Shown here: piece by piece, positions 3,181-29,047 of the stretch | Layout of the letters: the number at the start of each line of letters is the position of its first letter | Numbering within the stretch: the stretch's first letter is position 1 | IMG/VR virus record: IMGVR_UViG_3300037851_000119 | Coordinates: 1-59,637 of that record | Direction: 5' to 3' (one strand) | Length of the DNA stretch: 59,637 bases | DNA from: a virus | Translations under genes and position numbers: made by a program | Notes under the pieces: model-generated | Told to the model about the DNA's origin: nothing | What the model saw: the letters and a program-made list of their open reading frames with translations, nothing else | Databases searched by the model: none

Positions 3181-4272
3181 ATGTACCAGCAATTCAAGAA
3201 CAATGCCTTCTCCGCCCTGGCCGGGTCGTTGACCAACGTGGCCACGACCATGACGGTGCAGACCGGGCACGGCGACCGCTTCCCGCAGATCACGGCCCCG
3301 AACTACGCTTACGTTACCTTGCAGGACTCGAGCAACAACATCGAGATCGTGAAGGTAACTGCCCGCGCCGCCGCGTCTGACTCCATGACGATCACGCGAG
3401 CCCAGGAGGGCACGGCAGCCCGGGCCTGGAACATCGGTGACATCGTTGAGTTGCGCGTCACGGCGGCCGGCTTGAGCCAGATGGCAACGCTCGATGACCC
3501 GGAGACGCTGAACAATAAGACGCTGGCCAGCCCGACGATCAACACGCCGACGATCAACACGCCGACGATCACCGTGAACGACACCGGGCTCACAATTCAG
3601 GACAGCACAGATAACACCAAGAAGGCGGTGTTCGAGTGTTCTGGCATCACAACCGCCACCACCAGAACCTACACCCTGCCAAACATCAGCGGAACCCTGG
3701 CTGCCACGGCCAACACCGCCCAGACCTTCTCCGGAATCACGACATTCTCAAATGCAACGGTGACTGTCGGCAGCAGCACGGCGGCATCAACCTACGGACT
3801 TGGCACGGGCGCCACCCTCACGGCCACAACGAAAACGGTCAACATCGGCACAGCCGGTGTCTCCGGCTCGACAACGAACATCAACGTCGGCTCTGCGGTG
3901 TCCGGGGCGACATCGAACTTGGCGGTTGACGCCATCGGAACCTACAACAAGGCCCAGCGCGGAACCATCTCCACCCTGACGGACGGGGTGACGATCACGC
4001 CTGACTTCGCCGTGGCAAACAACTTCACGGTGACGCTGGGTGGAAACCGCACCCTTGCGAACCCGACCAATCTGGTGGCTGGGCAGAGCGGCTACATCGT
4101 CGTGCGCCAGGACGCCACCGGCAGCCGCACCCTGGCCTTTGACACCTACTGGAAAACGCCATCTGGTGTCGATCCGGTTCTGACCACCACCGCCAGCGCG
4201 ATTGACGTTCTTGGATACCTTGTCATCTCTGCGACCGAAATCCTAATAAATGCTGCTCTGGACATGAAATGA
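3181..4272 (+). CDS. Tail fibre protein
   Basis: 363-aa ORF rich in T/S/G/N, with a PTINTPTINTPTI repeat. It lies directly upstream of the tail-collar genes. Confidence 0.65.
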   Translation: MYQQFKNNAFSALAGSLTNVATTMTVQTGHGDRFPQITAPNYAYVTLQDSSNNIEIVKVTARAAASDSMTITRAQEGTAARAWNIGDIVELRVTAAGLSQMATLDDPETLNNKTLASPTINTPTINTPTITVNDTGLTIQDSTDNTKKAVFECSGITTATTRTYTLPNISGTLAATANTAQTFSGITTFSNATVTVGSSTAASTYGLGTGATLTATTKTVNIGTAGVSGSTTNINVGSAVSGATSNLAVDAIGTYNKAQRGTISTLTDGVTITPDFAVANNFTVTLGGNRTLANPTNLVAGQSGYIVVRQDATGSRTLAFDTYWKTPSGVDPVLTTTASAIDVLGYLVISATEILINAALDMK

Positions 4273-12716: not shown

Positions 12717-12729
12717 CTTGCGAGTTGCC

Positions 12730-15700
12730 ATGCCTAAGAAATGGGAAGAAGTACGCCGCTCTGATGCCTTCAAGCGCCTCTCCTCAGAAGAACAAGAAGA
12801 AGCCCGCAACCAATATTTCCGTGATGTCGTTGCCCCGCAGGTAGCGACAGAAGACCTCGAAGCAGTACGCAACAAGTTTGACGAGGACACGGCCCCCAGC
12901 CTGTCCCGCGCCGTCAAGGACTATGCCGGCGATGCCTGGGACGCCATCAACAAGCGCATCCGCCAGGAGCAACCGGAGCGCGATCGTGCCCGCCTGGGCA
13001 TCCTCGAAGACGAGGCCAGGGCCCCTGACAACTCTATTTCTGACCTGACCAACCTCCGCACGGACATCAACAACGTGCGGGCCCGTCTCGGCATGAAACC
13101 CGCGGAGCAGGAGCAGCGTGGCGCCAGCGGATCCTGGGGTGATCCGGTTCCTTCCGCGCCCGCCCCTCTTGCCGGCGTGACGAAGGCCCCAAGCGTGGCA
13201 ATGAACGACCCGCTCAAGACCGAGGGCCTGGAGGTGCTTGGCTCTATCGTTGGCCAGGGCGTCACCCGCCCGCCCGTCCCGACCAATACGCTCGATCGCC
13301 TGAACAACACCACGGAGCAGCAGAAGCGGATCAAGGCTGCCGGCGATGCTGCGGCCCGCAAGATGGTTCCTGGCATGGTTTCGCCCGGAAAGGAGCGTGA
13401 CTACCTCAAGCTGAACAAGGACTCGAAGGGCCTTTCCGCGATCAAGCAGGCGGAGGATGCGGAGCGCAAGCGCATCGCCAAGGAGATCGAGTCCTACGGC
13501 CAGAACTTCGATGAGAACGTGGCCAAGGGACAGTACAAGCCCATGGACGACCGGACTACCGGCGAGACGACCATGGACATGATGAAGGCTACCGCCGAGG
13601 GATTTGCCGCCACCGGCAAGATGATCGGCGATGTCTATGGCCTATCGACCGGCGACATGGACAACTGGCTTTCCAAGGCCGGGGATGAGGCCGTCGATTA
13701 CTGGCGCAAGTCCATGTCTGACTACCAGCAGGCCATGGACGCCTCGAATCAGGCCCAGCTTGCCCAGGTCGAGAAGGATCAAGGCATGTGGGCCGGGTTC
13801 AAGCAGGGCGTCCAGCAGGCCATTGATGACCCGTTGATCGCGGTCGCCCGCCAACTGCCGAACTTCATTGTTGGCGGCGTTGCCGGTGGCGCGGTAAAGG
13901 CAGCGGCGGCGAAGGCATTGCAGACGGCCACCGCGGCCACCCTTGCTGAGATCGGCGCAGGCGGTAACGTCCTGGCCATGGCGGCCATGCAGGGCGCGGA
14001 TGTCGGATCTGACGCCTACCAGAAGATCATTGGCCAGCCACAAGACCAATGGGACATGAATTGGGACTATCAGGAACTCGTCCAAAGTGGCGAGAAGCCG
14101 GAGGTTGCAAAGCAGATCGTTGCCCTGGCGCATGCCCGGGTGGCCGCTGCAAAGGCCGGAGCGGTATCAGTGGCCTCGAACTACATGATCCCTGGCGGCA
14201 TGACGATCGAGAAGATCCTGGCCGGGGCCATGGGCAAGGGAGGGTTCACGGGCGTTATCGGCGGGCTCGTCAAGGGCTATGTCGGCGAGGCTGGACAGGA
14301 GGCGGTAGAGGAAGGTGCTGGCCGCAAGTTAGTCAACGAGGCAGTCCAGAATATTGACGAGAACCAGGGCGCCTATGAGGGTGTCGGTGGCGCGGCCGGC
14401 GTTGGCGCTGGCACGGCCGGCATCATTGGTGGCGCAGCCGGAACCGCTGGCGGAGTCCGTGACTGGATCGCAAAGCGTGGCGTCACCGTGGAGGAACAGG
14501 GCCAGCCTGTACCACCACAGGATACAGCCTTCGATGCCGGCGCCCTGTTTGGCGCGGATCCTGCCGAGGCCGCGGACAAGGCGGATCAGGCCGCCCAGGC
14601 GATCGCTGCCGCTGCACAGGCTGGAGAGGTGGCCCCTGATGCCGACGCACAGGCGATCCAGGCAATCGAGGCGGCAAAGGCCGACCCGAAGCCGGACAAG
14701 ATCGAGGTCGCCGCCCAGGCTATCGCCGCTGCCTCAGAGCAGCAGCCCGCCCCTGCCGGCCCGGAGGTTTCTCTGCCTCCTGCCGCGCAAGGGATCACCA
14801 CCCAGCAACCCGCCGCCGCGCCCCAGGTTCAGGCCCCGCCTCCTCCTCCTGCCGGCCCGATGGTTCGCGCCGCAGAGATCGCCGCGCAACAGGGCGTTAC
14901 CGGGGCCGCCCCGGGCATTGATCAGGCCGTCGATGGCAGCCTGCTACTCGGAGAGGAGGAACAAGAAGATGTCGGCACAGACAATACGCCTGCCGGAGTG
15001 GTTGAGCCTGCCGTACCGGGCGGGACTGATAACGTCCCAGGAGGCGCTGGGCCTGCTGATGTGGGAGCAGGAGGCGTACTTCTCGGAGGCGGAGATACTG
15101 GAGCCGCCGCCGCACCTGTCGCAGGCGATGGACAAGTGCTGCCTGTTCCGGATGCCGGTCAGCCCGACGAGGCACTAGACCAGAAATCTCCTGTCGCCAC
15201 AGAGCAGGACGAGGAGAACATCAAAGAGGCAATCGACCTGCTTCTAAGCGTAGATCTGCCGATCATGAAAGATCGCGCCGCAGAACTCAAAAAGAACCTC
15301 GACCAATGGAAAGCTGGGAAGCGTTCCAAGTGGGCCAGCGAGTTCGATACGGCCGGGGTTCTCGCTGACATCAAGGAATACGTTTCCACATTCAAGAAAG
15401 CGCCGCCAGGGCCGGCATGGGATCCGCAGGCACAGGAGCATGAGGTTCAGCCGCCCATGCCCGGCCAAGTCGTCACCTGGGACACCGAGGACGGCCCGGC
15501 CAGGGGCCGCGTCTCCGACGACCAGAAGCAGGCCCTTGGTTCCGGCACGGTTGTCGAGATCATCGACCACCCCGACAAGGAGGGAAACCCGAAGCACAAG
15601 CGCGTCATCGTCCCGACCGAGAGCCTGACGCCTGACGAAGAGGCCGCCAAGGCCAGGGATGATCTTGATGCCGCGCTTGGGGAACTAGGCGGCATCCTTG

Positions 15701-18700
15701 GCACGGAGGCGGATCGAGTCGAGACGCCGAAGGCTGAGACGGAAGCGCCGAAGGCAGAGACGGAGGCCCCGAAGGAGGAGATGCCGCGCATCGCCACCGA
15801 CGACCGCGCCCCTGACTACACCCCTGAGACGCATGCACAGGTCATCGAGAAGCACCCGGAGAGTGGCGCGATCGGCCCGCAGGAAGGGTTCGAGCCCGAC
15901 AATGCCGACCGCATGGAAGGCGCCAGCGTTGACGAGATCAACGACCGCATCCAAGAGGTCGAGCAGGAACTTGAGGAGGACGCCCGCGCCTACGACGAGA
16001 TCAGGGAACAGGGCACGAAGGCCCTGACTGAGTATGAGCTAGGCATGCGCGAACCCGATGAGGCCGTCGATTTTGCCCTGACGCACCGCGAGAACTACAT
16101 CACCCAGGCCAAGTCGATGCTCGACTACCTGCGCGGCCTCAAGGCCCAGATGGAGGGCAACGACACCCCGGCCACCCGCATGGACTCATGGCAGTACGTT
16201 CCTGCCGATCCGGCCGTCATCGAGAAGGTGGCCGAGAAGCTGGATCTGGAGATTCCGAAGGCCGAGCAGGCCGGCCGCCCGGTCACGATCACGCACGGCA
16301 ATACCTCGATCATCTTCGAGAACAATGGCAAGGGATACGAGCCGACCAGGGCGGTGCTGTTCGACGGCACTCCGCTGATCCGCGGCGAAATGGCGACCCG
16401 CTCCCATGTGATCGACGCGATCAAGGCCTATGCCGACATCAACGTGGCGATCGCCGACGACTGGCTCAAGCATCTACAGCGATACGAGGGATATGCCAAG
16501 AAGGCAGGGGCACTCAAGAAGTTCAACGAAGGCGTTGCCTACCTGACTGACATCAGCAAGGGCAAGGAAATCCCGAATCTGAATCGCATCAACCAGATTG
16601 CGAACTCCATGCGCGGCCTGCCCGGCATGTCCGATGCCGTGGATGCCATGAAGGCGGCGGCCGGCGTATTCGGCAACGCAAAGGCGAAGGCCAAGGCAGA
16701 GCCGCAGCCTACCGCACAGATTTACGAGGACGCCTCGCGGAACCGCGTGATCCGACTGATAAAGGAATCTGGCGGCATCACCATGGACGAGGCCAGCGAC
16801 ATCATTGGCGAAACCGGCCGCCGTGCCGCCCAGCGCATGCCGGGCCTGTTCCGCAACAACGGCAACGGGATCGACCGCATTGCCGAGATGTTCCATGAGT
16901 ACGGCTACCTGACCGATGCCGAGTTCAACGATGTGGACGGCGGTGTGCAGCGGGTACGCGAGATCCTGCGCTCCGCCCTGGACAAGACCGGCTTCGTCGG
17001 CACGATGGCGGAGCAGGAGCGCCATGCTCAACTGCAAGCCATGGAGCAGGAGATCGGCGACAAGCACGGCGAGGCGATCGCTGACGAGGCGATGGTTCTT
17101 ACTGACGCCATCGAGGAAGAGTACGACAATATCCCCTTCACGCCAGCCGAGATCGAGGCGGCCGGGGGCAACGCCAACCCGTTCGGAGACGACAATGGAC
17201 AAACAGGAAATCGCCCAGCGGTTCAAGAAGCTGCCCAAGGACGTGCAAACCAAGGTGTTGCAAATGGCACGGATCAAGCGCAGCCTCAAGAAGGGTTCGG
17301 GCTCGAAGGCTACGACAAGCAAGACATAGCCGAGAAGGACGCCCGCGCCAACGATCAGGCCGCCGCCGACCGGGCGATGGCCGACCGTGAGCGTGACGCC
17401 TTCAACCTGACCGGCCAGACGGCCCAGCGCGAGACGCCGCCAACCGCCGAGATGTTCACCCCTGACGGCAGGGCTACCGATGCCGCCGCCAAGGCAAGGG
17501 CTCTCGAAGACCTGAACGATGCCCTGGCTGACCTGGGCGACATCTTCGGCAAGAACACCCGCCTGTACATGATCACCCCGGAGCAGGAGCAGAAACTTCT
17601 GCCGGTGCTTACTCGCGTCATGGATGCCGCCTTCCGGGCCGGTTACTACACCTTCAAGGAGGCGGCCAAGTTCGTCCTCGACCAGATCCGCGCCAAGCTG
17701 GGAAACAATGTTGCCGACATGATCAGCCTGGATCACCTCCAGGGCGCCTATATCGGTATGGCCGGCAAGTACGGCGACAAAGCCTCGAGCAAGAAAGATG
17801 TCGTTTCCGTCGAGAACATTGCCGATCTAGACAAGGCCGACCAGCCAGCCGCCGTCCCGTCCAAGGCTACGGAGACTGTCCCGCCCCAGGTTACGGAGAT
17901 CCCAGCCCGCGTGAAGGGCGCACCTTTATATATGGAGCCACTTGGGGAGAAGGCCGTCTTGATCCTGGGCGACACCATGGCCAACAAGGATCGCATCAAG
18001 GCAGCCGGCGCGATCTGGAACCGGGCTCACAAGGGCTGGATGTTCCCGAAGGCAAACCTCGCCAAGATGCTCGACAAGCTGGGCGACCTGTTCAAGCCAG
18101 ACGAGAAGACCCTGGCCGTCGAGAAGGCCATGGAGGTCATGCGCCATTTCATGCCCAACAGCCAATACCGCACGATCGAGTGGGGCATGAAGGGCGAGGA
18201 GGGAGAGTTCTTCAAGGACAAGATGATCGAGATGGCCAAGGTCATCGAGGACATGCCGAAGACCTACCAGCAGGACGGCAAGGGCGAAGGCGCCGTGGCC
18301 CATCTGCATTACTTCCGTGGTAGCACAGACTTCTGGATCACCGAGAAGGACAAGGACGGCCCTGGCACGGAGCAAGCCTATGGCCTCGCCTCGCTCTACA
18401 ACGACCCGAACGATGGCGACATGGGCTACATCTCGATTGACGAGATCACGGCCTCCAACGTCGAACTCGACCTGTACTGGACGCCGAAGACCATTGCCGA
18501 GATCAAGGGCAAGGCCGCGCCGGCCAAGACTGAGACGAAACCGGAGCCGACTCCCGCTCCAGCGCAGGAAGACACCGACACCGTGAAGGTGGCCAAGGAG
18601 TTCGCAAAGCGGTTCCAGGCTGGCGAACGCTTCGACTCCATCGTGGACGCCCGCAAGGTGGCCGGCGAGATCCTGGGCAAGGCCGTAACCCCAGGCACGG

Positions 18701-21700
18701 CGATCGCCAAGCAGGTTGACGAGGCGATCGAGTTGGGCGTGGTCATGGAGGCCCGCCGCATCGCCCAGGCCGGCAATGATGCCAAGGCGACCTATGACGC
18801 CCTGGTAGATCTGTACGACCGGCAGCCGAACCTGTCGATGAAGTCCTCGACCTCTGTTGCCAATCAGGCCTACTCGACCCCGGCGCCCCTGGCCTATCTG
18901 GCCTCCAGGCTGGCCGGCATCGACAAGGGCACGACCGTACTCGAACCAACGGCCGGCAACGGCATGCTGCTGATCGAGGCGGCTCCAGCCAAGACCGTAG
19001 CGAACGAGTTGAACGACGACAGAGCCGAGAACCTGCGGGCCATTGGTTTCAACCCGACCACCAAGAACGCTGCGACAGAGAAAATGGCGGCGGAGGTTCC
19101 GGTGCAGGCCGTGATTATGAACCCGCCTTTTGGCACGACCAAGGACGCGGCCGGCACGACGATCGAGTACACGGTTCCACACATCAAGAGCGCGGATGGA
19201 ACCTACAAGACAAACGAGGTTGATCATGCCATCGCCATGAAGAACCTCAAGCACATGAGGGAAAACGGCCGCGCAGTCCTGATCCTTGGCGGAGTAAAGG
19301 CCGAGAACGAGGCGGCCAGGAGTGATGCCTACAACAGCGGGGCAAAGCGCAAGTTCTATTGGGGCCTCTACGGCGAGTACAACGTGGTCGATCACTTCAC
19401 CGTGAACGGCGATCTATACTCGAAGCAGGGCGCCGCTTGGCCGGTCGATGTCGTTGTCATCGAGGGCAGAGGCAAGTCGGCCAGGGCCCTGCCAGCGGTT
19501 GACGTTCCTCGCATCTATAATTCGTGGGAAGACCTGAAAGGGGTACTGGATGAGCAAACTAGCAGACGAGATCGGAATCAAGCTGGAGCGACTCCTGCTC
19601 AAGGAGAAAAACCCGCATCCGACAATGGAGTATCTGGAAAGCCTGCTGGAGGAATCGGGGATCGACCCGTATCTGGAAATCAGGACGGAGAGCCCGGCCA
19701 AGTTCGCGTCGGATCTGAGCAGCATCCTGTCGGAAAACCGGGGGGCGTGGGTCAATCCGGGCAATCTGGACGAGTTCGAGACGGCGGAGGATCTGCTGGC
19801 GGCAATCCTGCCGTAGAGGCGTTCGAGGATAGCGGCCGGGATAGCGTAGTCCTAAACGAAGGAACCCAATTCGCAAAGACCGTACAGGTCGGCGAGGCGT
19901 GGTGGGTGCGCTTCCACACAACCGGAACCAAGGGCAAGCGCATCAACAAGGACGGGAAATACGTCTATACGACCGTACCTGACAACGGAGAATACCAAGA
20001 ACCGGGCATCAAGGTTCTGGCGATCGGCAAGGGCAATAACCCCAACTTCCTTGTAAGCGAGGGCGGTGTTGGCAAGGAAAATGTGCCGACAGTCGTACCT
20101 GCGTCTGACATGATGAAGATGTCCTCCACAAAAGAGGAGCAGGCCGAACACGAAAAGATCGTGGCAGAAAATGCTGCGGCAAGGGCGGCAGAAGAAGATG
20201 CCAATAGAAAGCCCGCCGAGCGCAAGACAGAGAAGGCCTCAGAGGGTCAGGTCAACTACGACCCGGTATCGAAGCAGGGCAATATTGGTACGCTTGTACC
20301 TGCAAACATGCGCGAGGCGGTCAAGTCCGCCCTGGAGAACCTGCAAGATCGCGTAGGCGACCTCGATGCCTTCGTTGCAGAACACCTCGACTACAAGAAG
20401 GAAGACCTGGGCAGCTACTTCTCTGCCGAGCAGGTTGACGCCCTGGCCCTGGCCCTGGACAACCTCGACAACGGCAAGGGCTTCATCATTGGCGACCAGA
20501 CCGGCGTTGGCAAGGGCCGGGTGAACGCTGCCATCATGAAGTGGGCGATCAAGAACGGCAAGACGCCGATCTTCGTCACAGAGAAGCCGAACCTCTACCG
20601 CGACATGCTGCGCGACATGGCCGACATCGGCATGGCCGGCAAGAGCCTTGAGCAGGCAGAAGACGGCGAGAAGATGCGCGGCGTATCAAAACTCGTCCTG
20701 ATGACGAACGCGGATCAGGACATCCCAATCGACGCCGAGGCCATGGAGTGGTTCGAGGAGATGGAGCAGGCCAAGGAGGAGGGGCTGCCTCCGCCGCCGA
20801 AGCCGAAGGAAGGCTTCATGCAAAAGGTATCCGGCCCGAAGCAGAAGGAGCGCCTGGATCGCATGGCGCAGAACGGCCGCCTGGAGGATGGCGCCAAGGT
20901 GGTATTCACGACCTACTCCCAGATCCAGACCGTCAAGGGCAACACCACCGTTCGCAACAAGTTCCTCGACACCTTCGCCAAGGGCGGCATCCTGATTCTT
21001 GACGAGTCCCACAACGCGGGCGGCAGCAGCAACGACAGAGGTGCAAAGAACGATCTCAACCGGGCCGTGCTGGTGCGTCAACTTGCAGGCGCCGCCGATG
21101 GTGTCTTCTATTCGTCGGCCACCTACGCCAAGAACCCTGCCGTGATGGATCTTTACTTCCGCACGGACATGAGCATGGCCGTCAGCAACATGAGCGAGTT
21201 GAAGGGCATCATCGAGAACGGCGGCGTCCCGATGCAGCAGATCCTCGCCAACATGCTCACCGAGGCCGGCCAGTACATGCGCCGGGAGCGTTCCTTCGAG
21301 GGCGTCGAGTACAACACCCCAACGGTCGAGGTGGCCAAGGAAATCGCCAACCAAGTATCGGACGGCATGCGGCAGATCATGGAGTTCTCTGATCTTGTAA
21401 AGGCCGTCACCAATGACATCGACGACGACATCAAGGGCGATGCAGGCAGCGCGTCAGAGGACGGGTCAACTGGCGGCGCCGGGGCGGAGTCCACTAGCTT
21501 CGCCTCCGTGATGCACAACCTGATCGGCCAATACCTGCTGGCGCTAAAGGTCGAGCCAACTATCAAGATGGCCATAGAGTCCCTGAAAGCCGGCGAGAAG
21601 CCTGTTATCACCGTGGCGAACACCATGGAGTCCCTGATCAACGAACTGGCAAAAGACCGCGGCGTTGGCATAGGCGACCCGGTGGATCTTGGCTTTGGCG

Positions 21701-24700
21701 ACCTGTTCGTGCGCTACCTTGAGAAGACCCGCGCCATCACGATCAAGGACGGATTCGGCAACAAGCAGAAGCACTACCTGACCGACGAGGAACTTGGCCC
21801 CGGTGGCGTTGCAATGTACGAGGCGATCAAGCAGTTCTCACTTGGGTCTGATTGGGGTAATACGCCGATCTCACCGATCGACAGGATCAAGGCGGAACTG
21901 GAGAGGGCTGGCTACAAGACCGGCGAGATCACGGGCCGCCAGGGTACGCTGGACTATGCCGGCAAAGACCCGATTTACCGCATGCGCGGCAACAAGGAGC
22001 GTTCCGTTGCCGGCAGAATCAAGACCATCGAGGCCTTCAACAACGGTGACATCGACGTTGTGATCCTGAACCGCGCCGGATCCACGGGCCTGTCCTTGCA
22101 TGCCAGCCCGAAGACCGGCAAGGATCTCCGGCGCCGGCACATGATCATCGCCCAGGCCGAGGCGAACATCGACACCCACATGCAGATGTTGGGCCGCGTC
22201 CACCGTACCGGGCAGGTTATTGCGCCGCGCTACTCGCAACTGGTGGCCAACGTGCCTGCCGAGAACCGCCCTGCCGCCGTCCTGGCGAAGAAGATGGCCA
22301 GCCTGAACGCCAACACCTCCGCCGCCCGGTCGTCTGTCGTGACGGCAAAGGACACCCTGGACTACATGAACGAGTATGGCGACGAGGTGATCGCCAACCT
22401 CATGTATGCCGATCAGGAACTCCACTTCAAGCTGGGCGCCCCGCTCAAGTATGACGACAGCGGCAACGGATTCGAGCCGAAGGACGCCGCCAGAAAGGTG
22501 ACTGGCCGCATCCCGCTCTTGCCACTATCTGATCAGGAGGCACTGTACGAGCAGATCGGCATCGACTACAAGGACTTCCTGGCCATGAAGGAGGCCATGG
22601 GCGAGAACAAGCTGGAGGCCAAGGTCTTCGAGTTGGAGGCGATCCCAACAGACGAGATCGAACTGACCGCCAGAGTCGGCGACAGCACATCTCCGTTCGC
22701 CGCCCCGTCAAAGGCGATCATCTACGACATCAAGCGGATCGGAAAGCCGATGACGGAGGAGGAGCGCACGAACGCGATCCTCAAGTCTCTCGGCAACAAG
22801 GACTCCTGGGGCTGGGCAGCAGACAACCTCAAGGCGATCAAGAGCGAGTACGAGGCCTTCGAGGCCGATGAACTGGCGACCATCGAGGGTCAGCGCACAA
22901 TGGAGGCTACCAAGATGCGCCTGCGCTACCAGTACAACAAGGTGGTGAACGCGATCGAGGAATTCGGCCCAAGCGCCCCGTTTGAACTGATCGATGCGAA
23001 GGGTATGGTCTTCTACGGCGAGGTGCTTGGTCTTGAGCGCAAGGGCAAGGCAAAGAACCCGGCAGCGACCGGGACTTGGAAGATAAGGTTGGCCCTGGCT
23101 GATTCCGCCCGCTCGATCACCATCCCCCTGTCCAAGATCACCTTCGAGGACAAGAAGGAGGCCGGCAAGAGCAGGCTCAAGCTATCTGACAAGCGCACCG
23201 TCGATGACGCTTTCGCTCGCATGCAGGGCGTCTCCCGCGAGAACAGGGTGATCCTTGAGGGCAACCTTGTTGCCGCGTTCAGCACCTTCCCTGGCGGCCA
23301 GATCATCTACTTCAACGGGAACGATGGCCATCTGCGCCAGGGCATCCTGATGCCGCGCAACTTCAACCTCAAGAAGGCCGTGGCCAAGAAGGCCGAGGTG
23401 CTGCGTACACCGGATGAGGCTGTCTCCTTCCTCAAGAAGGATCAGATGAAGCACATGCTGATTGATGACGCCGCCAGCGGCCAGATCGGCTATGTCCGTG
23501 ATCCTCGCTACCGCACCTGGGGCTGGCAGATCTCCGTGCCGTCGAGCAAGAAGTCTGGCGCCAAGTGGTTCCTGAATCAGGACATCCTCACCGCGCTGGG
23601 CGTTGACTTCTTCAAGAGTGGTAGCCGGATGGTTGCCTCTTTCGATGAGTCGCAACTGCCCGCCGTGGTGGCCGCTGTCTATAAGCAGGAGCGCCTGAAA
23701 GGGGTCAACCGCTCCGCCCAGGAGAGTTCCCGCCCGAACGCCGTCAGCGCAGACATGACGGCCAAGGACGTTCGCCGGGCCCTGGATGATCACTTCGGCC
23801 GCGGCATAATCCAATCCATGATCAACGGCGGCATCCTCCAGATCGTTGATCGGATCGACCAACTACCCGAGCATCTTGCCAAGATGTACAAGGGTCGCAC
23901 CGATGTCGATGGCCTCTATGACCCGTATGCCGAGCGCGGCTGGATCATCGCCGAGAACAGCACTCCTGACACCGTTGCCAAGACCCTGATCCATGAGATC
24001 GGCGAACACTACGGCCTGGAGCGCATGCTTGGGCCGGATGAGTACACGCGCATCCTGAACACGGTTCGCTCGATGCACGTTGCCGGGAACCCCGTGGTCA
24101 AAGCCGCCTGGAAGGAGGTCAAGGACTACTATACCCGCGAGGAGGGTAGCCGAGAGTTCCTGCGCGAGGTGCTGGCCAAGGTGGCAGAGCGGGCCGCAGA
24201 CAAGCCGATCGGCGTCCTTGAGCGGATCTACCGGGCCGTGAAGAAGTGGCTGGCCGACAATGGCTGGACGCAACTGAACGACCGCGATCTGCAAGCCCTG
24301 GTGATGGCCTCTCTCCGCAAGTCAACATCTGACGTTCGCACCCTTGTAATCCGCGGCGGCGAGGTCGTGGCTTCGAGCCGAAGCATCCGCGATCGCCTCG
24401 CCTGGGATCAGCAGAACGAAGACAAGAATGGCCCCGTGTTCGAGGCCCCTGACTTCAAGATTATCTCGACCCGTGAACTGTCCACGACCGACGACTTCCA
24501 GCGTGATGGGCTGGCCTTCGGCCATGCGGCCCATGTCCGTGCCGGCAACAAGGCCTACCGCATGGAGATCCTGACGAATGACGGGCGCCGGATCGGCGGC
24601 ATGGACGCGGAGGTGAACGCATTTGGCGAGATCTCGGCCATCCATGACATCGAGTTCAACCGCTACGAGCGCGGCAAAGGGTGGGGTAAAAAGGTGGTGT

Positions 24701-27525
24701 CGTACATCGTAGCCAACAACTATGATGAAGATGCCGTTCGCATCGTGCAGATTGTTGAAGACGCAAAAGCCTTCTGGCGTAAAATGGGGGCACTCGAAGG
24801 AGATCCGTATGGAAACAGTCAAATCGCCTGGGCAGACCATGAGAAATCCGCTCACCGTGGCAAGGGAGGAACGCTGGGCTCAGATGGAGGCGGAAGGCCG
24901 GGAGTTCGAGGCCCAAGTGAAAGCATCCGGGGGGGTCGAGGCGTATCTCAACAAGCGGTTCCCGCAACGCGCCAAGGCGGCCCGTCAGACAAATTCCTAC
25001 AAGCCGTAGGCGGGCGGGCCCTCGCCAAGAGGATTACCTTACCGACCTACAACTACGCGGCTGCCGTACTCGACAGGTTCACCCCTGAGACGGTAAAGGC
25101 CGGGGTAGTTTCAGACTATGGCCTCGATGAGGCCTACACCGACCGGCGAGATGATGTAGAGATCGCCGTCACCAAGCACCTCCGCAGCGCCAAGACCATG
25201 ATCGAGCGGCTGGCCGGCCTGACCAGGGCCGAAAGCCGGGTGGCCTATCAATGGCTGAACGAGAAGCCTGACACGGAACTTGAGCGCCAGCTTTACGCAG
25301 AACTGCCGGAGGCCTCCCGCCGCGTCCTCGATGAGGTCAAGGAGTTTATCGACACCCTCTCCCAGGAGGCGATCGAACTAGGCCAGTTGACCACGGAGGC
25401 CTACGAGCGGAACAAGTACGCCTACCTGCACCGCTCCTATGCCAAGTACACCCTGGACAATGGGAAGACGATGCGGGCCCTCCATGCCCTGCGCCGCCGC
25501 ATCATTGGCGACCAGTACAAGGGACGCGGCCTCAAGTTCTTGGTAGGCATGGACAAGTTGATGGCGGCCGGCAAGCGGGTCAAGCAGGGCGACAAGTTCA
25601 TCCGCCTGGAGAAGAAGGCATCGACCGGCAAGATCACAAAGCGCATCTGGTGGAAGGAGGGCGTCCCGATCCCCGAGGCCTATGCCGCCTTCGAGGTCGA
25701 TCCGAATCCGTGGGAATGGCGATGGACTGACAAGAAGGGCCCTGTCCTATGGCGCGACTTCTCCAAGGAAGAGCGGGAGCAGATGGGGGAACTGGACGAG
25801 GCCCGCTTCGCCATCGTGACGACGATCTCGAAGATGGCCCACGACATCGAGATTGGCAAGTTCTTCGCCTTCGTTGACGAGAACTACGCCGAGGAAAACC
25901 CGCCCCCGGGCGCAGAGGTGATGAAGGCCGTGGACATCGAGCGCGGCAAGATCAACTGGATCGACGCCCTCAAGAAGGGGACATGGGTTCAGGTTCCCGA
26001 CACCAAGATCCAGGGCACAAGCGTCCACAAGTACGGCGCGATCGCCGGCAAGTACGTCCCTGGCCCGATATGGAATGACATTCGCCAGATCGCCAACAAG
26101 CCCGGCGTCTGGGCGTGGTACGACAAGATGATGAAGTATTGGAAGATCTCCAAGACTGCGCTCTCCCCGGCCGTCCACCTCAACAACGTCATGGCCAACT
26201 TCGTCATGGCCGACATGCATGATGTCGGTGTGCGCGAGATCTACGAGGCCGTCACCATCATGGTGAAGGCCAAGAAGGGCAACGCCGATGCCAAGGCTAT
26301 GATCGAGCGGTTCGAGGACTCCGGCGCAATCGCCGGCAGCTTCATCCATGCCGACCTAAAAGACGACCTGATCAATCCGCTCTTGGAGGAACTGCGTGAG
26401 CAGATGAATGGCGACGACGAGATGGCAGGCATGGCCAGTATCGGGACGGTCTTCTCCCTGCTGCATGAGAAGCAATGGAAGCAGGCCACCAATGCCCTGC
26501 TATCCACCAAGGGGGCGGCCCGCGGCAAGAAGGTGGTCGATCTGATGATGAAGGCCTACTCAGGCGAGGATGAGATCTTCCGTCTGGCCGCCTTCCTCAA
26601 GGGAACCAAGGACGGGATGACAGACCGCGAGGCCGGCAAGATGGCCCGCAAGTCGTTCCTAGACTACCGGATCAATGCGCCCTGGATCCAGAACCTACGG
26701 CACACCGTCCTGCCGTTCGTGGCCTTCTCCTACCGGATGCTGCCGATGTATCTCGAGATGTTCGCCAAGAAGCCTTGGAAGCTGGCTAAGTACGCGATCT
26801 TCTCGAACGCCATGGTGGCGATCGGCATGTCCCTGGCCGGCGTTGACGAAGACGACATGGACGAGATCGAGAAGTTGCTGCCGGAAGACAAGCAGGGCAT
26901 CACCCCGTTCCTGACGAATCGCCTTATCCCGCTCGGAAGGGGTGAGGATGATCGGATGATCATGCTCGACATCACCCGCTGGATTCCTCTTGGCGACATC
27001 TTCGAGATGCGCGGCGACACCAGCAACACCATGCCGTTCCTGGCCCCGGCCTATCCGTCCGGCCCGATGATGACGTTGCTCGAGGTGTTCGCCAACAAGA
27101 GCCTGTTCAGCGGCCGGGACATCTGGATGGAAACTGACGCCACGGCAGAGGCCGCCTCCAAGTCGTTCGCGCACATCTGGAAGGGCTGGATGCCTAACTT
27201 CCCGATGCTGCCCGGCACATACTCCACCGACAAGATCATGGCCGCCTACACCGGGGCCACCGATACCTTCGGCCGCGAATACGATCTGGGTCAGGCCTTG
27301 CTGTCGTCTGTCGGCGTGAAGGCCGGGTACTACTCGACAGACACCCTGCGGATGAACGCCTACTACGACTACGACTCCTCGATGGATGAACTGGTGTCCA
27401 GCTACTACTCGCTGGCCCGCCAGTACAACCAGAACAAGATCACCGAGGCCGAGTACGACGAGAGGGCTGCCAAGATCCAGGCGAAGATCGAGGAACTGAC
27501 GCGGAAGTACGAGGAGAAGAACTAG
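12730..27525 (+). CDS. Giant multidomain (polyvalent-type) virion protein of about 4930 aa, with methyltransferase and SNF2/strawberry-notch-like helicase segments
   Basis: Uninterrupted ORF; the track start at 12718 is TTG and the first ATG is 12730. Motifs: VLEPTAGNG and NPPF (19120-19131); GDQTGVGKGR (20491-20520); DESH (21001-21012); QMLGRVHRTGQ (22183-22215). Confidence 0.85.
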   Translation: MPKKWEEVRRSDAFKRLSSEEQEEARNQYFRDVVAPQVATEDLEAVRNKFDEDTAPSLSRAVKDYAGDAWDAINKRIRQEQPERDRARLGILEDEARAPDNSISDLTNLRTDINNVRARLGMKPAEQEQRGASGSWGDPVPSAPAPLAGVTKAPSVAMNDPLKTEGLEVLGSIVGQGVTRPPVPTNTLDRLNNTTEQQKRIKAAGDAAARKMVPGMVSPGKERDYLKLNKDSKGLSAIKQAEDAERKRIAKEIESYGQNFDENVAKGQYKPMDDRTTGETTMDMMKATAEGFAATGKMIGDVYGLSTGDMDNWLSKAGDEAVDYWRKSMSDYQQAMDASNQAQLAQVEKDQGMWAGFKQGVQQAIDDPLIAVARQLPNFIVGGVAGGAVKAAAAKALQTATAATLAEIGAGGNVLAMAAMQGADVGSDAYQKIIGQPQDQWDMNWDYQELVQSGEKPEVAKQIVALAHARVAAAKAGAVSVASNYMIPGGMTIEKILAGAMGKGGFTGVIGGLVKGYVGEAGQEAVEEGAGRKLVNEAVQNIDENQGAYEGVGGAAGVGAGTAGIIGGAAGTAGGVRDWIAKRGVTVEEQGQPVPPQDTAFDAGALFGADPAEAADKADQAAQAIAAAAQAGEVAPDADAQAIQAIEAAKADPKPDKIEVAAQAIAAASEQQPAPAGPEVSLPPAAQGITTQQPAAAPQVQAPPPPPAGPMVRAAEIAAQQGVTGAAPGIDQAVDGSLLLGEEEQEDVGTDNTPAGVVEPAVPGGTDNVPGGAGPADVGAGGVLLGGGDTGAAAAPVAGDGQVLPVPDAGQPDEALDQKSPVATEQDEENIKEAIDLLLSVDLPIMKDRAAELKKNLDQWKAGKRSKWASEFDTAGVLADIKEYVSTFKKAPPGPAWDPQAQEHEVQPPMPGQVVTWDTEDGPARGRVSDDQKQALGSGTVVEIIDHPDKEGNPKHKRVIVPTESLTPDEEAAKARDDLDAALGELGGILGTEADRVETPKAETEAPKAETEAPKEEMPRIATDDRAPDYTPETHAQVIEKHPESGAIGPQEGFEPDNADRMEGASVDEINDRIQEVEQELEEDARAYDEIREQGTKALTEYELGMREPDEAVDFALTHRENYITQAKSMLDYLRGLKAQMEGNDTPATRMDSWQYVPADPAVIEKVAEKLDLEIPKAEQAGRPVTITHGNTSIIFENNGKGYEPTRAVLFDGTPLIRGEMATRSHVIDAIKAYADINVAIADDWLKHLQRYEGYAKKAGALKKFNEGVAYLTDISKGKEIPNLNRINQIANSMRGLPGMSDAVDAMKAAAGVFGNAKAKAKAEPQPTAQIYEDASRNRVIRLIKESGGITMDEASDIIGETGRRAAQRMPGLFRNNGNGIDRIAEMFHEYGYLTDAEFNDVDGGVQRVREILRSALDKTGFVGTMAEQERHAQLQAMEQEIGDKHGEAIADEAMVLTDAIEEEYDNIPFTPAEIEAAGGNANPFGDDNGQTGNRPAVQEAAQGRANQGVANGTDQAQPQEGFGLEGYDKQDIAEKDARANDQAAADRAMADRERDAFNLTGQTAQRETPPTAEMFTPDGRATDAAAKARALEDLNDALADLGDIFGKNTRLYMITPEQEQKLLPVLTRVMDAAFRAGYYTFKEAAKFVLDQIRAKLGNNVADMISLDHLQGAYIGMAGKYGDKASSKKDVVSVENIADLDKADQPAAVPSKATETVPPQVTEIPARVKGAPLYMEPLGEKAVLILGDTMANKDRIKAAGAIWNRAHKGWMFPKANLAKMLDKLGDLFKPDEKTLAVEKAMEVMRHFMPNSQYRTIEWGMKGEEGEFFKDKMIEMAKVIEDMPKTYQQDGKGEGAVAHLHYFRGSTDFWITEKDKDGPGTEQAYGLASLYNDPNDGDMGYISIDEITASNVELDLYWTPKTIAEIKGKAAPAKTETKPEPTPAPAQEDTDTVKVAKEFAKRFQAGERFDSIVDARKVAGEILGKAVTPGTAIAKQVDEAIELGVVMEARRIAQAGNDAKATYDALVDLYDRQPNLSMKSSTSVANQAYSTPAPLAYLASRLAGIDKGTTVLEPTAGNGMLLIEAAPAKTVANELNDDRAENLRAIGFNPTTKNAATEKMAAEVPVQAVIMNPPFGTTKDAAGTTIEYTVPHIKSADGTYKTNEVDHAIAMKNLKHMRENGRAVLILGGVKAENEAARSDAYNSGAKRKFYWGLYGEYNVVDHFTVNGDLYSKQGAAWPVDVVVIEGRGKSARALPAVDVPRIYNSWEDLKGVLDEQTSRRDRNQAGATPAQGEKPASDNGVSGKPAGGIGDRPVSGNQDGEPGQVRVGSEQHPVGKPGGVGQSGQSGRVRDGGGSAGGNPAVEAFEDSGRDSVVLNEGTQFAKTVQVGEAWWVRFHTTGTKGKRINKDGKYVYTTVPDNGEYQEPGIKVLAIGKGNNPNFLVSEGGVGKENVPTVVPASDMMKMSSTKEEQAEHEKIVAENAAARAAEEDANRKPAERKTEKASEGQVNYDPVSKQGNIGTLVPANMREAVKSALENLQDRVGDLDAFVAEHLDYKKEDLGSYFSAEQVDALALALDNLDNGKGFIIGDQTGVGKGRVNAAIMKWAIKNGKTPIFVTEKPNLYRDMLRDMADIGMAGKSLEQAEDGEKMRGVSKLVLMTNADQDIPIDAEAMEWFEEMEQAKEEGLPPPPKPKEGFMQKVSGPKQKERLDRMAQNGRLEDGAKVVFTTYSQIQTVKGNTTVRNKFLDTFAKGGILILDESHNAGGSSNDRGAKNDLNRAVLVRQLAGAADGVFYSSATYAKNPAVMDLYFRTDMSMAVSNMSELKGIIENGGVPMQQILANMLTEAGQYMRRERSFEGVEYNTPTVEVAKEIANQVSDGMRQIMEFSDLVKAVTNDIDDDIKGDAGSASEDGSTGGAGAESTSFASVMHNLIGQYLLALKVEPTIKMAIESLKAGEKPVITVANTMESLINELAKDRGVGIGDPVDLGFGDLFVRYLEKTRAITIKDGFGNKQKHYLTDEELGPGGVAMYEAIKQFSLGSDWGNTPISPIDRIKAELERAGYKTGEITGRQGTLDYAGKDPIYRMRGNKERSVAGRIKTIEAFNNGDIDVVILNRAGSTGLSLHASPKTGKDLRRRHMIIAQAEANIDTHMQMLGRVHRTGQVIAPRYSQLVANVPAENRPAAVLAKKMASLNANTSAARSSVVTAKDTLDYMNEYGDEVIANLMYADQELHFKLGAPLKYDDSGNGFEPKDAARKVTGRIPLLPLSDQEALYEQIGIDYKDFLAMKEAMGENKLEAKVFELEAIPTDEIELTARVGDSTSPFAAPSKAIIYDIKRIGKPMTEEERTNAILKSLGNKDSWGWAADNLKAIKSEYEAFEADELATIEGQRTMEATKMRLRYQYNKVVNAIEEFGPSAPFELIDAKGMVFYGEVLGLERKGKAKNPAATGTWKIRLALADSARSITIPLSKITFEDKKEAGKSRLKLSDKRTVDDAFARMQGVSRENRVILEGNLVAAFSTFPGGQIIYFNGNDGHLRQGILMPRNFNLKKAVAKKAEVLRTPDEAVSFLKKDQMKHMLIDDAASGQIGYVRDPRYRTWGWQISVPSSKKSGAKWFLNQDILTALGVDFFKSGSRMVASFDESQLPAVVAAVYKQERLKGVNRSAQESSRPNAVSADMTAKDVRRALDDHFGRGIIQSMINGGILQIVDRIDQLPEHLAKMYKGRTDVDGLYDPYAERGWIIAENSTPDTVAKTLIHEIGEHYGLERMLGPDEYTRILNTVRSMHVAGNPVVKAAWKEVKDYYTREEGSREFLREVLAKVAERAADKPIGVLERIYRAVKKWLADNGWTQLNDRDLQALVMASLRKSTSDVRTLVIRGGEVVASSRSIRDRLAWDQQNEDKNGPVFEAPDFKIISTRELSTTDDFQRDGLAFGHAAHVRAGNKAYRMEILTNDGRRIGGMDAEVNAFGEISAIHDIEFNRYERGKGWGKKVVSYIVANNYDEDAVRIVQIVEDAKAFWRKMGALEGDPYGNSQIAWADHEKSAHRGKGGTLGSDGGGRPGVRGPSESIRGGRGVSQQAVPATRQGGPSDKFLQAVGGRALAKRITLPTYNYAAAVLDRFTPETVKAGVVSDYGLDEAYTDRRDDVEIAVTKHLRSAKTMIERLAGLTRAESRVAYQWLNEKPDTELERQLYAELPEASRRVLDEVKEFIDTLSQEAIELGQLTTEAYERNKYAYLHRSYAKYTLDNGKTMRALHALRRRIIGDQYKGRGLKFLVGMDKLMAAGKRVKQGDKFIRLEKKASTGKITKRIWWKEGVPIPEAYAAFEVDPNPWEWRWTDKKGPVLWRDFSKEEREQMGELDEARFAIVTTISKMAHDIEIGKFFAFVDENYAEENPPPGAEVMKAVDIERGKINWIDALKKGTWVQVPDTKIQGTSVHKYGAIAGKYVPGPIWNDIRQIANKPGVWAWYDKMMKYWKISKTALSPAVHLNNVMANFVMADMHDVGVREIYEAVTIMVKAKKGNADAKAMIERFEDSGAIAGSFIHADLKDDLINPLLEELREQMNGDDEMAGMASIGTVFSLLHEKQWKQATNALLSTKGAARGKKVVDLMMKAYSGEDEIFRLAAFLKGTKDGMTDREAGKMARKSFLDYRINAPWIQNLRHTVLPFVAFSYRMLPMYLEMFAKKPWKLAKYAIFSNAMVAIGMSLAGVDEDDMDEIEKLLPEDKQGITPFLTNRLIPLGRGEDDRMIMLDITRWIPLGDIFEMRGDTSNTMPFLAPAYPSGPMMTLLEVFANKSLFSGRDIWMETDATAEAASKSFAHIWKGWMPNFPMLPGTYSTDKIMAAYTGATDTFGREYDLGQALLSSVGVKAGYYSTDTLRMNAYYDYDSSMDELVSSYYSLARQYNQNKITEAEYDERAAKIQAKIEELTRKYEEKN
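14969..15178 (+). CDS. Nested +1-frame ORF A (69 aa) inside the giant gene
   Basis: AGGAGG (14954-14959) lies 9 nt before the ATG. By hand count, GC3 is 63/69 here versus 32/70 for the giant frame over the same bases. Peptide: MSAQTIRLPEWLSLPYRAGLITSQEALGLLMWEQEAYF... Confidence 0.5.
   Translation: MSAQTIRLPEWLSLPYRAGLITSQEALGLLMWEQEAYFSEAEILEPPPHLSQAMDKCCLFRMPVSPTRH
17195..17329 (+). CDS. Nested +1-frame ORF B (44 aa) inside the giant gene
   Basis: GGAG (17185-17188) lies 6 nt before the ATG. GC3 is 35/44 versus 17/45 for the giant frame. Peptide: MDKQEIAQRFKKLPKDVQTKVLQMARIKRSLKK... Confidence 0.4.
   Translation: MDKQEIAQRFKKLPKDVQTKVLQMARIKRSLKKGSGSKATTSKT
18280..18470 (+). other. DUF2958-like segment of the giant protein
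   Basis: HLHYFRGSTDFWITEKD...YGLASL...GYISIDEI matches the DUF2958 pattern as I remember it. Confidence 0.45.
18790..19540 (+). other. N6-adenine DNA methyltransferase segment of the giant protein
   Basis: SAM-binding motif VLEPTAGNGML (18937-18969) and catalytic NPPF (19120-19131). Confidence 0.75.
19550..19816 (+). CDS. Nested +1-frame ORF C (88 aa) inside the giant gene
   Basis: AAGGGGT (19538-19544) lies 5 nt before the ATG. An in-frame TGA sits 4 codons upstream. GC3 is 69/88 versus about 33/89 for the giant frame. The peptide looks helical and acidic. Confidence 0.5.
   Translation: MSKLADEIGIKLERLLLKEKNPHPTMEYLESLLEESGIDPYLEIRTESPAKFASDLSSILSENRGAWVNPGNLDEFETAEDLLAAILP
20260..22420 (+). 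other. Strawberry-notch / SNF2-type helicase segment of the giant protein
   Basis: GDQTGVGKGR P-loop, DESH box, and motif VI QMLGRVHRTGQ. Confidence 0.7.
24553..24792 (+). other. GNAT-like segment of the giant protein
   Basis: EISAIHDIEFNRYERGKGWGKKVVSYIV...AKAFWRKMGA resembles the acetyl-CoA-binding core of GNATs. DNA here is locally AT-richer. Confidence 0.4.
24809..25009 (+). CDS. Nested +1-frame ORF D (66 aa) inside the giant gene
   Basis: AAGGAG (24797-24802) lies 6 nt before the ATG. GC3 is 48/66 versus 32/67 for the giant frame. Peptide: METVKSPGQTMRNPLTVAREERWAQMEAEGREFEAQVK... Confidence 0.45.
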   Translation: METVKSPGQTMRNPLTVAREERWAQMEAEGREFEAQVKASGGVEAYLNKRFPQRAKAARQTNSYKP

Positions 27526-27988: not shown

Positions 27989-29047
27989 TCAGGCCACTTT
28001 CTCTTGGCCCTGGTCGTAGGGAGTAGCGTTGCCGGCGAAGCGGGCGACATGCCCTGGCGCGAGGTGGGCGTACTTCTGCACCATGTCCAGGCTGGCCCAT
28101 CCACCCAGCTTTTGCAGCACCTCAAGCGGCGTTCCGTTCATCACATGCCATGACGCCCAGGTATGGCGAAGGCAATGGAAGACGAACCCGGATCTCTTGG
28201 TGATGCTGGATTTCCCATATCGGTCTTTCCGCCTGACCTCCTTTATATAGAGGCCTGCCCTGACGCAGGCCCGATCGAAGGCCTCGCCGATCTCGCTCAT
28301 GGGCCCGCACTTTGACAGGTCGGCGTCCTTGCGCTTGTTGGAGTACGGGAACACCCATGTCTTGTTCTTGCCGGCCTGGGACTGGAGGACGGCCAGGGCC
28401 TCGTCGTTGATCGGGATCGAGATCGGCTTGCCTGCCTTTGCCTCGTCAGGGTGAACCCAGAGGACGCGGCGCTTCATGTCCACCTCGCGCCATGCCAGAC
28501 TGAGGATGTTGTGCTGCCGCATGCCGGTCGTGATCGCCAGCTTGCAGATCGGCTTGAGGTGATCAGGCAGTTCCTTGTAGAGGGCCTGCCACTCTGAGGC
28601 CGTGAGCCAGAGGATGCGCCCCTCCGGTTCCTTCTTCGACTTGACCTTGGGGGCCCTGTCCAGCCAGCCAAGACTGGCGGCATGGTTCAGGATGGCCATG
28701 ATCAGGTTCTTCTTGCGGTTCCATGTGCCGGGCTTTTCGCCGGCCAGGGCCTCGCTGATGATGTCAGGGGTGATCTTGGAGAGCGGAAGATCCTCGATCT
28801 TGAGGTTCCGTAGCATGTAGCGATCCGAGTCGCCGCGATCCCCTGCCTCTAGCCATGAGACGCAGGCCTCCAGCCAGGACTTCTCTACTCCTGGCTGCGC
28901 CCGCCAGAGATCGCTCTTAAGGTGGTCGTGCTGCTCTTGGGCTTCGCGCTTATCGGCAGTCCGAGTGCTGTGGCGAATCTGTCTGCCATCTGGGGCCGTG
29001 ATGCGGATCCACCAGTACGGGCTCTTGGGGTCACGGTAGAGCGACAT
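27989..29047 (-). CDS. int: Tyrosine integrase
   Basis: 352 aa. C-terminal HCLRHTWASWHVMNGTPLEVLQKLGGWASLDMVQKYAHL is the typical catalytic region. Adjacent to the tRNA fragment. Confidence 0.9.
   Translation of the reverse strand: MSLYRDPKSPYWWIRITAPDGRQIRHSTRTADKREAQEQHDHLKSDLWRAQPGVEKSWLEACVSWLEAGDRGDSDRYMLRNLKIEDLPLSKITPDIISEALAGEKPGTWNRKKNLIMAILNHAASLGWLDRAPKVKSKKEPEGRILWLTASEWQALYKELPDHLKPICKLAITTGMRQHNILSLAWREVDMKRRVLWVHPDEAKAGKPISIPINDEALAVLQSQAGKNKTWVFPYSNKRKDADLSKCGPMSEIGEAFDRACVRAGLYIKEVRRKDRYGKSSITKRSGFVFHCLRHTWASWHVMNGTPLEVLQKLGGWASLDMVQKYAHLAPGHVARFAGNATPYDQGQEKVA

Follow-up and report, generated by a model that had tools for sequence, protein, structure and literature searches.

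A probable gene nested in the interdomain linker of a DarB-like methyltransferase-helicase protein

The virus record IMGVR_UViG_3300037851_000119 of IMG/VR (positions 1 to 59,637; this whole stretch of 59,637 nt is called the window) carries a giant gene whose product joins an N6-adenine methyltransferase domain to a strawberry-notch helicase, a pair referred to here as the dyad. We report that the DNA between these two domains very probably encodes a second protein. An open reading frame (ORF) at 19550-19816, in the +1 frame of the dyad linker, is best read as a genuine, separately translated gene, for which we propose internal initiation and an accessory role. As the ORF has no existing name, we call it X. 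Our confidence is high for this reading as a whole and higher still for the dual-coding gene itself.

Position and codon phase of the nested ORF

The features on which the argument depends are all on the plus strand:

12718..27525, plus strand: giant ORF, the host frame of the nested gene, encoding a polyvalent internal-virion-type protein (from the ORF list, translation, Pfam domains and neighbouring genes)
18715..19548, plus strand: N6-adenine methyltransferase domain with an NPPFG motif, ending ...RIYNSWEDLKGVL (full-length alignment with homologs; weak Pfam N6_Mtase)
19535..19537, plus strand: TGA stop in the nested (+1) frame, four codons 5' of the nested ATG
19536..19543, plus strand: Shine-Dalgarno-like GAAAGGGG, 6 nt 5' of the nested ATG, read as codons L-K-G in the giant frame; pairing energy with the anti-Shine-Dalgarno (dG) -7.9 kcal/mol
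19549..19818, plus strand: giant-frame translation of the X DNA, a Cys-free tether of 90 amino acids (aa) rich in G, P, S, R, D, E and Q, presumably disordered, running from methyltransferase to helicase
19550..19816, plus strand: nested gene X in phase +1 of the giant ORF, 88 aa, pI 4.35, net charge -10, four predicted helices
~19858..20217, plus strand: lineage-specific in-frame insertion of about 120 aa, a beta-rich segment followed by a charged helix, absent from the related contigs L083 and L084 and from other homologs
20218..22407, plus strand: helicase lead-in (ERKTEKASEGQVNYDPVSKQGNIGTLVPANM...) and strawberry-notch helicase core (conserved; Pfam; alignment with homologs)

X lies wholly inside the giant ORF, on the same strand, with its ATG at 19550 and its TAG at 19814-19816. 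A preliminary description of this DNA had placed the ATG, the TGA four codons upstream and the TAG at the positions at which we found them again, and both the 88-aa peptide and the giant-frame reading (SRRDRNQAGATPAQGEKPASDNGVSGKP...) that it gave agreed with our re-translation. It had called the ORF discrete and its product acidic and helical; this is borne out by the pI of 4.35, the four predicted helices, and the family and phase evidence presented below.

The length of X is by itself unremarkable, there being nine plus-strand ORFs of at least 88 aa in alternative frames inside the giant gene. Its codon phase is another matter. Over 19550-19816 the GC content at codon positions 1/2/3 was 0.61/0.36/0.79 in the nested frame, the same pattern as in the whole giant ORF (0.63/0.42/0.78), and 0.79/0.61/0.36 when the same DNA was read in the giant frame. 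A scan of the entire giant ORF found no second region with an equally strong switch of codon phase.

Two other +1 ORFs of the giant gene were inspected. The first (14354-15178, plus strand, 274 aa) covers an Ala/Gly/Pro-rich stretch of the giant protein and reads as Arg/Pro/Ser junk; its own-frame GC content of 0.57/0.63/0.86 has no coding phase. It exemplifies automatic opening of a +1 frame and makes a useful contrast to X. The second (24722-25009, plus strand, 95 aa, ATG start) lies in another G/R/S-rich linker, after a GNAT-like segment. Its own-frame GC content was 0.53/0.47/0.73 and the giant-frame GC content at codon position 3 (GC3) fell to 0.47, a weaker phase switch than at X. The encoded peptide is basic and not obviously foldable, and a tblastn search with it against plasmids gave no match.

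The nested ORF in homologous dyads

We compared 80 genomic loci that encode methyltransferase-helicase dyads, and both domain boundaries could be placed in 75 of them. According to the record titles, the set includes cyanobacteria, alpha-, beta- and gamma-proteobacteria, Desulfobacterota, Bacteroidota, a firmicute, Planctomycetota, Verrucomicrobiota and candidate-phyla-radiation (CPR) bacteria; the phrase "at least nine phyla" refers throughout to the labels carried by the bacterial records. The dyad homologs have two well-conserved domains separated by a non-alignable "linker" rich in G, S, P, R and E, and methyltransferase and helicase are in frame, without an intervening stop, in 73 of the 75 loci. 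A +1 ORF of 90-233 aa occupies the same position in the linker in 73/75 loci, with labels of at least nine phyla. The +1 frame is open across almost the entire linker in most of the 73 in-frame loci, and the +2 frame contains 4-30 stops. In nearly all 75 loci the giant-frame GC3 of the linker falls far below that of the flanks, for example from 0.89 to 0.50, from 0.83 to 0.44 and from 0.77 to 0.33.

The encoded peptides form a protein family with two forms, which are homologous to each other (hhalign probability 88%, E = 3e-6). Members of the long form (about 140-175 aa, one of them 233 aa) share the motifs NPNVWxP, R-[VL]-[ED]-W-[LM]-IQ and QWAEA-[IL]-T, with TLEEWL at the C-terminus. Those of the short form (about 90-135 aa) share RTPxxFA and, at the C-terminus, ETxE[DE]L[IL]xx[IL][IL]P(SEGGL/SDGHLE). 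Written per residue, this C-terminal motif is ET-x-E-[DE]-L-[ILV]-x-x-[ILM]-[IL]-P, and the window peptide conforms to it; its C-terminus ...ETAEDLLAAILP aligns with ...ETFEELILSLIPSEGGL and ...ETPDDLILRLLPSDGHLE of family members.

Membership of the window peptide was supported by several searches. A hidden Markov model (HMM) built from 15 homologous short-form peptides, with the window excluded, matched X at E = 2e-6, and the runner-up among the 1140 window ORFs scored 0.24. A phmmer search of 1.8 billion representative proteins returned six matches of 87-101 aa, the best with 46% identity and E = 6.5e-13. The X profile search returned 31 called proteins of 72-175 aa, mostly about 100 aa and all named only "hypothetical protein"; one of the 31 had a Pfam match, to a zinc ribbon outside the X domain. 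No match to the 88-aa peptide was obtained by a word-indexed search, nor by tblastn against phages, and tblastn against plasmids gave only E ~0.6. Viral contigs gave no match either when scanned with the dyad protein or with a degenerate DNA pattern of the LIPSEGGL motif, and megablast of the X region against phages was likewise without match.

The best phmmer match lies in contigs L083 and L084, where it is again nested in the +1 frame, ahead of a helicase about 83% identical to that of the window. In these two contigs (L083, 2188-2907), the methyltransferase is absent except for its last 15 or so residues. One codon 5' of the X ATG is the end of an unrelated gene of 150 aa, which uses the X frame; the helicase ORF has a GTG start a little upstream. 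Although the dyad is broken, X is retained, together with its overlap with the N-terminal linker of the helicase ORF.

Three further records are of use for orientation. The giant protein of Bacteroides phage BS-TP4 carries X. In Gloeobacter morelensis plasmid pGMOR1 (NZ_CP063846.1, L081 3306-3755), the nested ORF was annotated by the NCBI pipeline as hypothetical protein WP_230844304.1. The RefSeq helicase coding sequence (CDS) of this plasmid begins directly after X, though the fused frame is open from methyltransferase to helicase, and the PLSDB feature table, itself incomplete, has no CDS over the methyltransferase part. These gene calls look like an annotation artefact produced by dual coding. 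Annotation pipelines discard long, conserved overlapping genes on the same strand. Lastly, plasmid pAQ6 of Picosynechococcus sp. PCC 7002 has a 168-aa X (L097 2204-2710, equal to NC_010480.1 complement(100507..101013)) nested in the dyad gene SYNPCC7002_RS15125 behind a GAGGA Shine-Dalgarno. This cyanobacterium is a tractable carrier of X and convenient for experiments.

Selection on both reading frames

Substitutions were counted over X in independent locus pairs. Differences at nested positions 1/2/3 numbered 48/26/106 in pairs with 90-99% DNA identity, 118/87/280 at 75-90% and 363/313/672 at 60-75%. In every comparison of locus pairs, the amino-acid identity of X was higher in the nested than in the giant frame. 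We then expressed differences per site at giant-frame positions 1/2/3, using a fixed set of locus pairs. Values were 0.145/0.110/0.397 in the methyltransferase and 0.161/0.107/0.428 in the helicase, and 0.362/0.242/0.187 in the nested region between them. The coding constraint is shifted by one base exactly over the nested ORF. Substitutions fall most often at position 3 and least often at position 2 of the nested frame, opposite to the flanks, which indicates that X is under purifying selection at the protein level.

The giant frame over X was examined against a null model in which the synonymous codons of X were resampled with the codon usage of each locus. Across the 73 loci, no giant-frame stop was observed against about 439 expected; for the window alone, the probability of a stop-free giant frame was 0.034. 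The giant-frame linker was also less hydrophobic than expected (0.137 vs 0.194), poorer in Cys and more polar, with the same sign in 73/73 loci. As the giant frame over X is stop-free, hydrophilic and Cys-poor, both frames are under selection, and the giant frame would thus also be translated, as a disordered tether. The comparison of the two suggests that X is the more constrained frame and that the host frame has been reduced to a linker.

A codon phase like that of X could also arise if an ordinary coding region were moved by one base. By this account the X frame was once the giant protein's own, and was displaced in this genome by two indels that compensate each other. One metagenomic protein, P0155, from a 1.9-kb contig, does show an in-frame junction of X, most likely the result of an indel. 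The arrangement is found in 73 loci, however, and not in this genome only; X has its own start, stop and Shine-Dalgarno, with selection in both frames; and no X-like sequence stands in frame with both methyltransferase and helicase among the 75 loci. We regard such a relic as very improbable.

Start signals and route of translation

The nested start codon has a fixed place. In 67 of 73 loci it is at linker offset +1 or +4, so that it falls in one of the first two codons of the linker; in the window, the giant-frame codons GAT GAG yield the nested ATG in +1. Pairing with the anti-Shine-Dalgarno 5' of the nested ATG averaged -7.7 kcal/mol over the 73 loci, compared with -2.8 kcal/mol at random in-gene positions (p = 1e-32), and was strong (dG of -5 kcal/mol or stronger) in 89% of loci vs 25% of random in-gene positions. 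Its usual sequence is AAGGAG, part of the codons for a conserved L-K-E that ends the methyltransferase domain.

No promoter-like site was seen near X, and X is therefore presumably translated from the mRNA of the giant gene by internal initiation. Ribosomes starting internally at the Shine-Dalgarno and ATG would release X as a free, acidic, four-helix protein of 9.8 kDa. Those reading the giant frame would make the fused methyltransferase-helicase enzyme, with a disordered tether across X.

We also considered a programmed +1 ribosomal frameshift, by which X would be the C-terminal extension of a truncated methyltransferase-X product. X begins exactly at the end of the methyltransferase, in the +1 frame, and in about 20 loci this frame is open for more than 30 codons 5' of the ATG, as a frameshift product would need. 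In the window and in most related loci, however, a +1-frame stop stands 1-4 codons before the nested start, which speaks against such a fusion. Loci with an open +1 frame upstream have non-conserved, junk-like sequence there; the bases between stop and ATG are variable, with no common slippery or shift motif; and the fixed offset of the start and the strong Shine-Dalgarno pairing also stand against it. A frameshift is accordingly an explanation to which we give little credence.

The segment downstream of X

Past the X stop, the giant frame regains its normal phase, with GC3 of 0.67. The preliminary description had noted that the following 450 nt or so are AT-richer, as we found (GC 0.54-0.55 vs about 0.60; giant-frame GC3 0.67 vs 0.78), and had proposed that 19540-20260 as a whole might be an inserted two-part cassette that splits the methyltransferase-helicase pair. 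The second part of this idea stands in so far as ~19858-20217 is an insertion: alignment with the closest relative, L083/L084, showed about 120 extra aa in the window where L083 has five residues. This insertion had no Pfam match, and a single-sequence AlphaFold2 model reached a mean predicted local distance difference test (pLDDT) of only 45.

A recent mobile-cassette insertion of X together with the downstream domain into an ordinary linker would fit this AT-richer indel, and also the existence of distant dyads (about 30% identity) without X, from which it follows that X was gained or lost at a deep point. For X itself the idea fails. X is an old, integral part of the dyad clade, because it has the same position in 73/75 related dyads with labels of at least nine phyla. 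Its GC3 equals that of the host gene, the giant frame over X is under selection, and no repeats or ends of a mobile element were seen. Nor is the pair split: selection keeps the giant frame over X open as well, which joins the two domains. A closed nested frame in homologs, which the preliminary description had named as a ground for refuting its reading, is not what they show; there the frame is open, conserved and under purifying selection. We therefore hold a cassette comprising X to be improbable, and the sequence comparison indicates that the ~19858-20217 insertion is not part of a cassette with X.

In several alphaproteobacterial loci (L004, L011, L018, L040 and L048), the giant frame has an extra helical domain after the end of X and before the helicase. 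These domains resemble one another (...DAAFD...KAKPxFxAAA...) and differ from the insertion of the window. The position just behind X seems prone to receive in-frame domains, in the window as in these loci.

Loci with free-standing X and dyads without X

Outside intact dyads, X was found free-standing after a tail-fibre gene in a Rhodoplanes prophage and beside a truncated helicase start (L095). On a small metagenomic contig (L096 2306-2833), beside a ParA-like gene, it is part of a free-standing protein of 175 aa that combines a Top1-type zinc ribbon (weak PF01396) with an X domain; this fusion may hint that X acts at DNA. The free-standing genes (L085, L095 and L096) were considered as ancestors of the nested form and rejected. 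We read them as relics of nested copies, because few stops interrupt what would be the host frame over their X domain and because L095 keeps a decayed helicase start.

The distant dyads of Yersinia, Pseudomonas, Xanthomonas and Cupriavidus plasmids (about 30% identity) served as negative controls. Their linkers are short and have no protein-like +1 ORF and no LKE/AAGGAG motif; in the Pseudomonas plasmid, the +1 frame is open but its sequence is not protein-like. Linker GC3 was close to that of the flank in three of these controls and lower in Yersinia (0.36 vs 0.48). A Persicobacter plasmid has methyltransferase and helicase as separate genes, without X.

Properties and possible function of the X product

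The 88-aa window peptide (9.8 kDa) has 18 acidic and 8 basic residues. Across the family, the mean net charge is -10.7 and hydrophobic residues make up 35%, vs 14% in the giant-frame reading. AlphaFold2 modelled the window X confidently from a 26-sequence alignment (pLDDT 89.4, predicted template modelling score 0.80), with helices at residues 3-17, 22-35, 49-62 and 79-86. Searches of Pfam, NCBIfam, PHROGs and PDB sequences found no relatives of X, and a Foldseek search of the model against the PDB and BFVD gave a best E above 1, with no known fold relative.

As X has no family, sequence or fold relative, its function was considered from context only. X might be an accessory factor of the DarB-like antirestriction module, as a chaperone, inhibitor or regulator and possibly as a nucleic-acid mimic, a suggestion we put forward tentatively. 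This role would require X to remain a polypeptide of its own, with the two enzymes delivered together as one chain. Its nested position would secure the co-inheritance and co-expression of X with the dyad in proteins subject to frequent domain shuffling.

Evidence for and against a genuine gene

Several points weigh against reading X as a genuine gene with an accessory role. The most general is that +1 stops require T at host codon position 2, so any hydrophilic linker opens automatically in +1; openness by itself proves nothing, and we rejected it as evidence. Cyanobacteria dominate the locus set, and many loci are closely related. X also evolves faster than its flanks, its closest relative having 46% identity where the helicase has about 83%. 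Expression of X is deduced from sequence and not from peptides or ribosome footprints, and its function, lacking a sequence or fold relative, is pure inference. Finally, intact X persists where the dyad has decayed (L085, L095, L096), so that it may act independently of the dyad; such loci hint at a value of X on its own.

The first of these points bears on the simplest alternative, namely that X is a chance ORF, a hydrophilic low-complexity linker that happens to be stop-free in +1 and encodes nothing. Precedents exist in the 274-aa Arg/Pro/Ser ORF of the same gene and in the open Pseudomonas linker. For X, this reading is contradicted by the codon phase, the substitution pattern, the HMM and phmmer matches, the motifs, the Shine-Dalgarno and ATG, and the confident fold, and we regard it as refuted. 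The depressed GC3 of the linker is a feature for which automatic +1 opening does not account. The case for X rests on phase, substitution pattern, conservation and fold.

Which of the two frames came first is a separate question. The linker may be the younger frame, an ancestral trio of methyltransferase, X and helicase having been fused by reading through X in its -1 frame; we consider this conceivable but rather unlikely. The codon-usage criterion for viral overlaps would point to X as the older frame and the linker as overprinted. Codon usage does not fix the direction of overprinting, because stronger selection on X could give the same pattern. Were the linker the younger frame, methyltransferase and helicase could be packaged or injected as one chain, with X remaining free and confined to the donor cell, for example as a VirE1-like chaperone or an inhibitor that holds the dyad inactive until delivery. 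This would amount to a gene fusion by overprinting across a third gene, stable across bacteria labelled with at least nine phyla.

The host gene and its phage context

The giant ORF has 4935 codons (12718-27525, plus strand) and a probable ATG start at 12730, according to the ORF list and translation. Pfam placed a weak N6_Mtase match (aa 2121-2190) ahead of the AAA_34 and Helicase_C_4 strawberry-notch domains (aa 2586-3230). Taken by itself, the N6_Mtase match is sub-threshold (16 bits vs a cut-off of 20.4). The giant-frame translation has the NPPFG motif, of the NPPF type, and the domain can be aligned end to end with homologs, many of which have PF02384. AAA_34 (nt 20473-21345, E = 2e-24) and Helicase_C_4 (nt 21919-22407, E = 8e-24) are in the same ORF as the methyltransferase.

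The giant gene comes after genes for a tail fibre and an internal virion protein (phrog_511), and the same window contains integrase, terminase, portal and major head genes. This virion-gene neighbourhood, together with the phage genes of the window, identifies the giant protein as one of the virion "polyvalent" proteins defined by Iyer et al. 2017 (PMC5512222). The window (1-59637) resembles a temperate, podovirus-like phage or prophage, with no near match in the GenBank phage collection. Its main phage genes are:

3181-4272: tail fibre
6656-8686: internal virion protein
27989-29047, minus strand: integrase
47645-49327: terminase
50695-52962: portal
54180-55298: major head protein

Comparison with known systems

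Long, conserved overlaps between genes of the same strand are regarded as very rare in bacteria. Here a dual-coding region of 270-700 nt would be kept in plasmids, phages and integrated elements of cyanobacteria, proteobacteria, Desulfobacterota, Bacteroidota, CPR bacteria and others, and the "linker" of a well-known antirestriction module would be the shadow of a hidden gene. The DarB-like dyad thereby gains an unannotated protein family that functional studies have so far ignored or unknowingly disrupted. The region offers a natural system for frame sharing, with a structured protein in the constrained frame and a disordered tether in the other, and it suggests that a depressed GC3 in a low-complexity "linker" can reveal a hidden gene.

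The methylase-helicase dyad of polyvalent proteins, with DarB of phage P1 as archetype, was described by Iyer, Burroughs and Aravind in 2017 (PMC5512222). The host gene in the window resembles it in having an EcoKI/TaqI-like adenine methyltransferase and a C-terminal superfamily 2 (SF2) helicase, here strawberry-notch, in a giant virion or transfer protein; this likeness is to the published description, as the P1 DarB sequence was too distant to be retrieved. The words "overlap" and "linker" do not occur in that paper, and its sole use of "reading frame" concerns another matter. In neither the dyad-defining paper nor our full-text literature searches did we find a nested gene described for this dyad.

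Proteins that are small, acidic and helical and have their gene beside that of a protein delivered into another cell are exemplified by VirE1/VirE2 of Agrobacterium, by other small acidic partners of translocated DNA-binding proteins, and by the DNA mimics Ocr and ArdA. X is likewise small, acidic, helical and encoded beside a delivered protein, with no sequence or fold similarity to any of these, and we use the likeness as a working analogy. With a pI of 4.35 and a net charge of -10 over 88 aa, X is acidic, but as far as we are aware less so than Ocr or ArdA.

Out-of-frame nested genes are a kind already known. ComS, encoded inside srfAB of Bacillus subtilis, and the microprotein GndA, encoded inside gnd of E. 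coli, are small out-of-frame proteins with their own internal start. Both cases are discussed in PMC12350097 and PMC11230408. X is like them in that a small out-of-frame ORF lies wholly within a much larger enzyme gene on the same strand. It differs in length and spread: comS and GndA have 46-60 aa or less and are limited to one genus or family, whereas X has 88-233 aa and is found under labels of at least nine phyla. Unlike these proteins, X is predicted to fold and occupies the more constrained frame, the host frame being reduced to a linker.

Among phages, Rz1 in Rz of the lambdoid spanins, and E in D and B in A of phiX174, each lie in the +1 frame of another gene, and both members of a pair yield a functional product. 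Such embedded phage genes are reviewed in PMC8227390. X shares this full embedding in the +1 frame. The two proteins of each phage pair are structured, serve one process and are known from phages only. The host frame of X, in contrast, would be a disordered tether in a multi-domain enzyme, and X occurs on plasmids and chromosomal elements too. What is apparently new, then, is the protein family X itself, its depth of conservation across mobile elements and phages with labels of at least nine phyla, and the pairing of a structured protein in the constrained frame with an inter-domain tether in the other.

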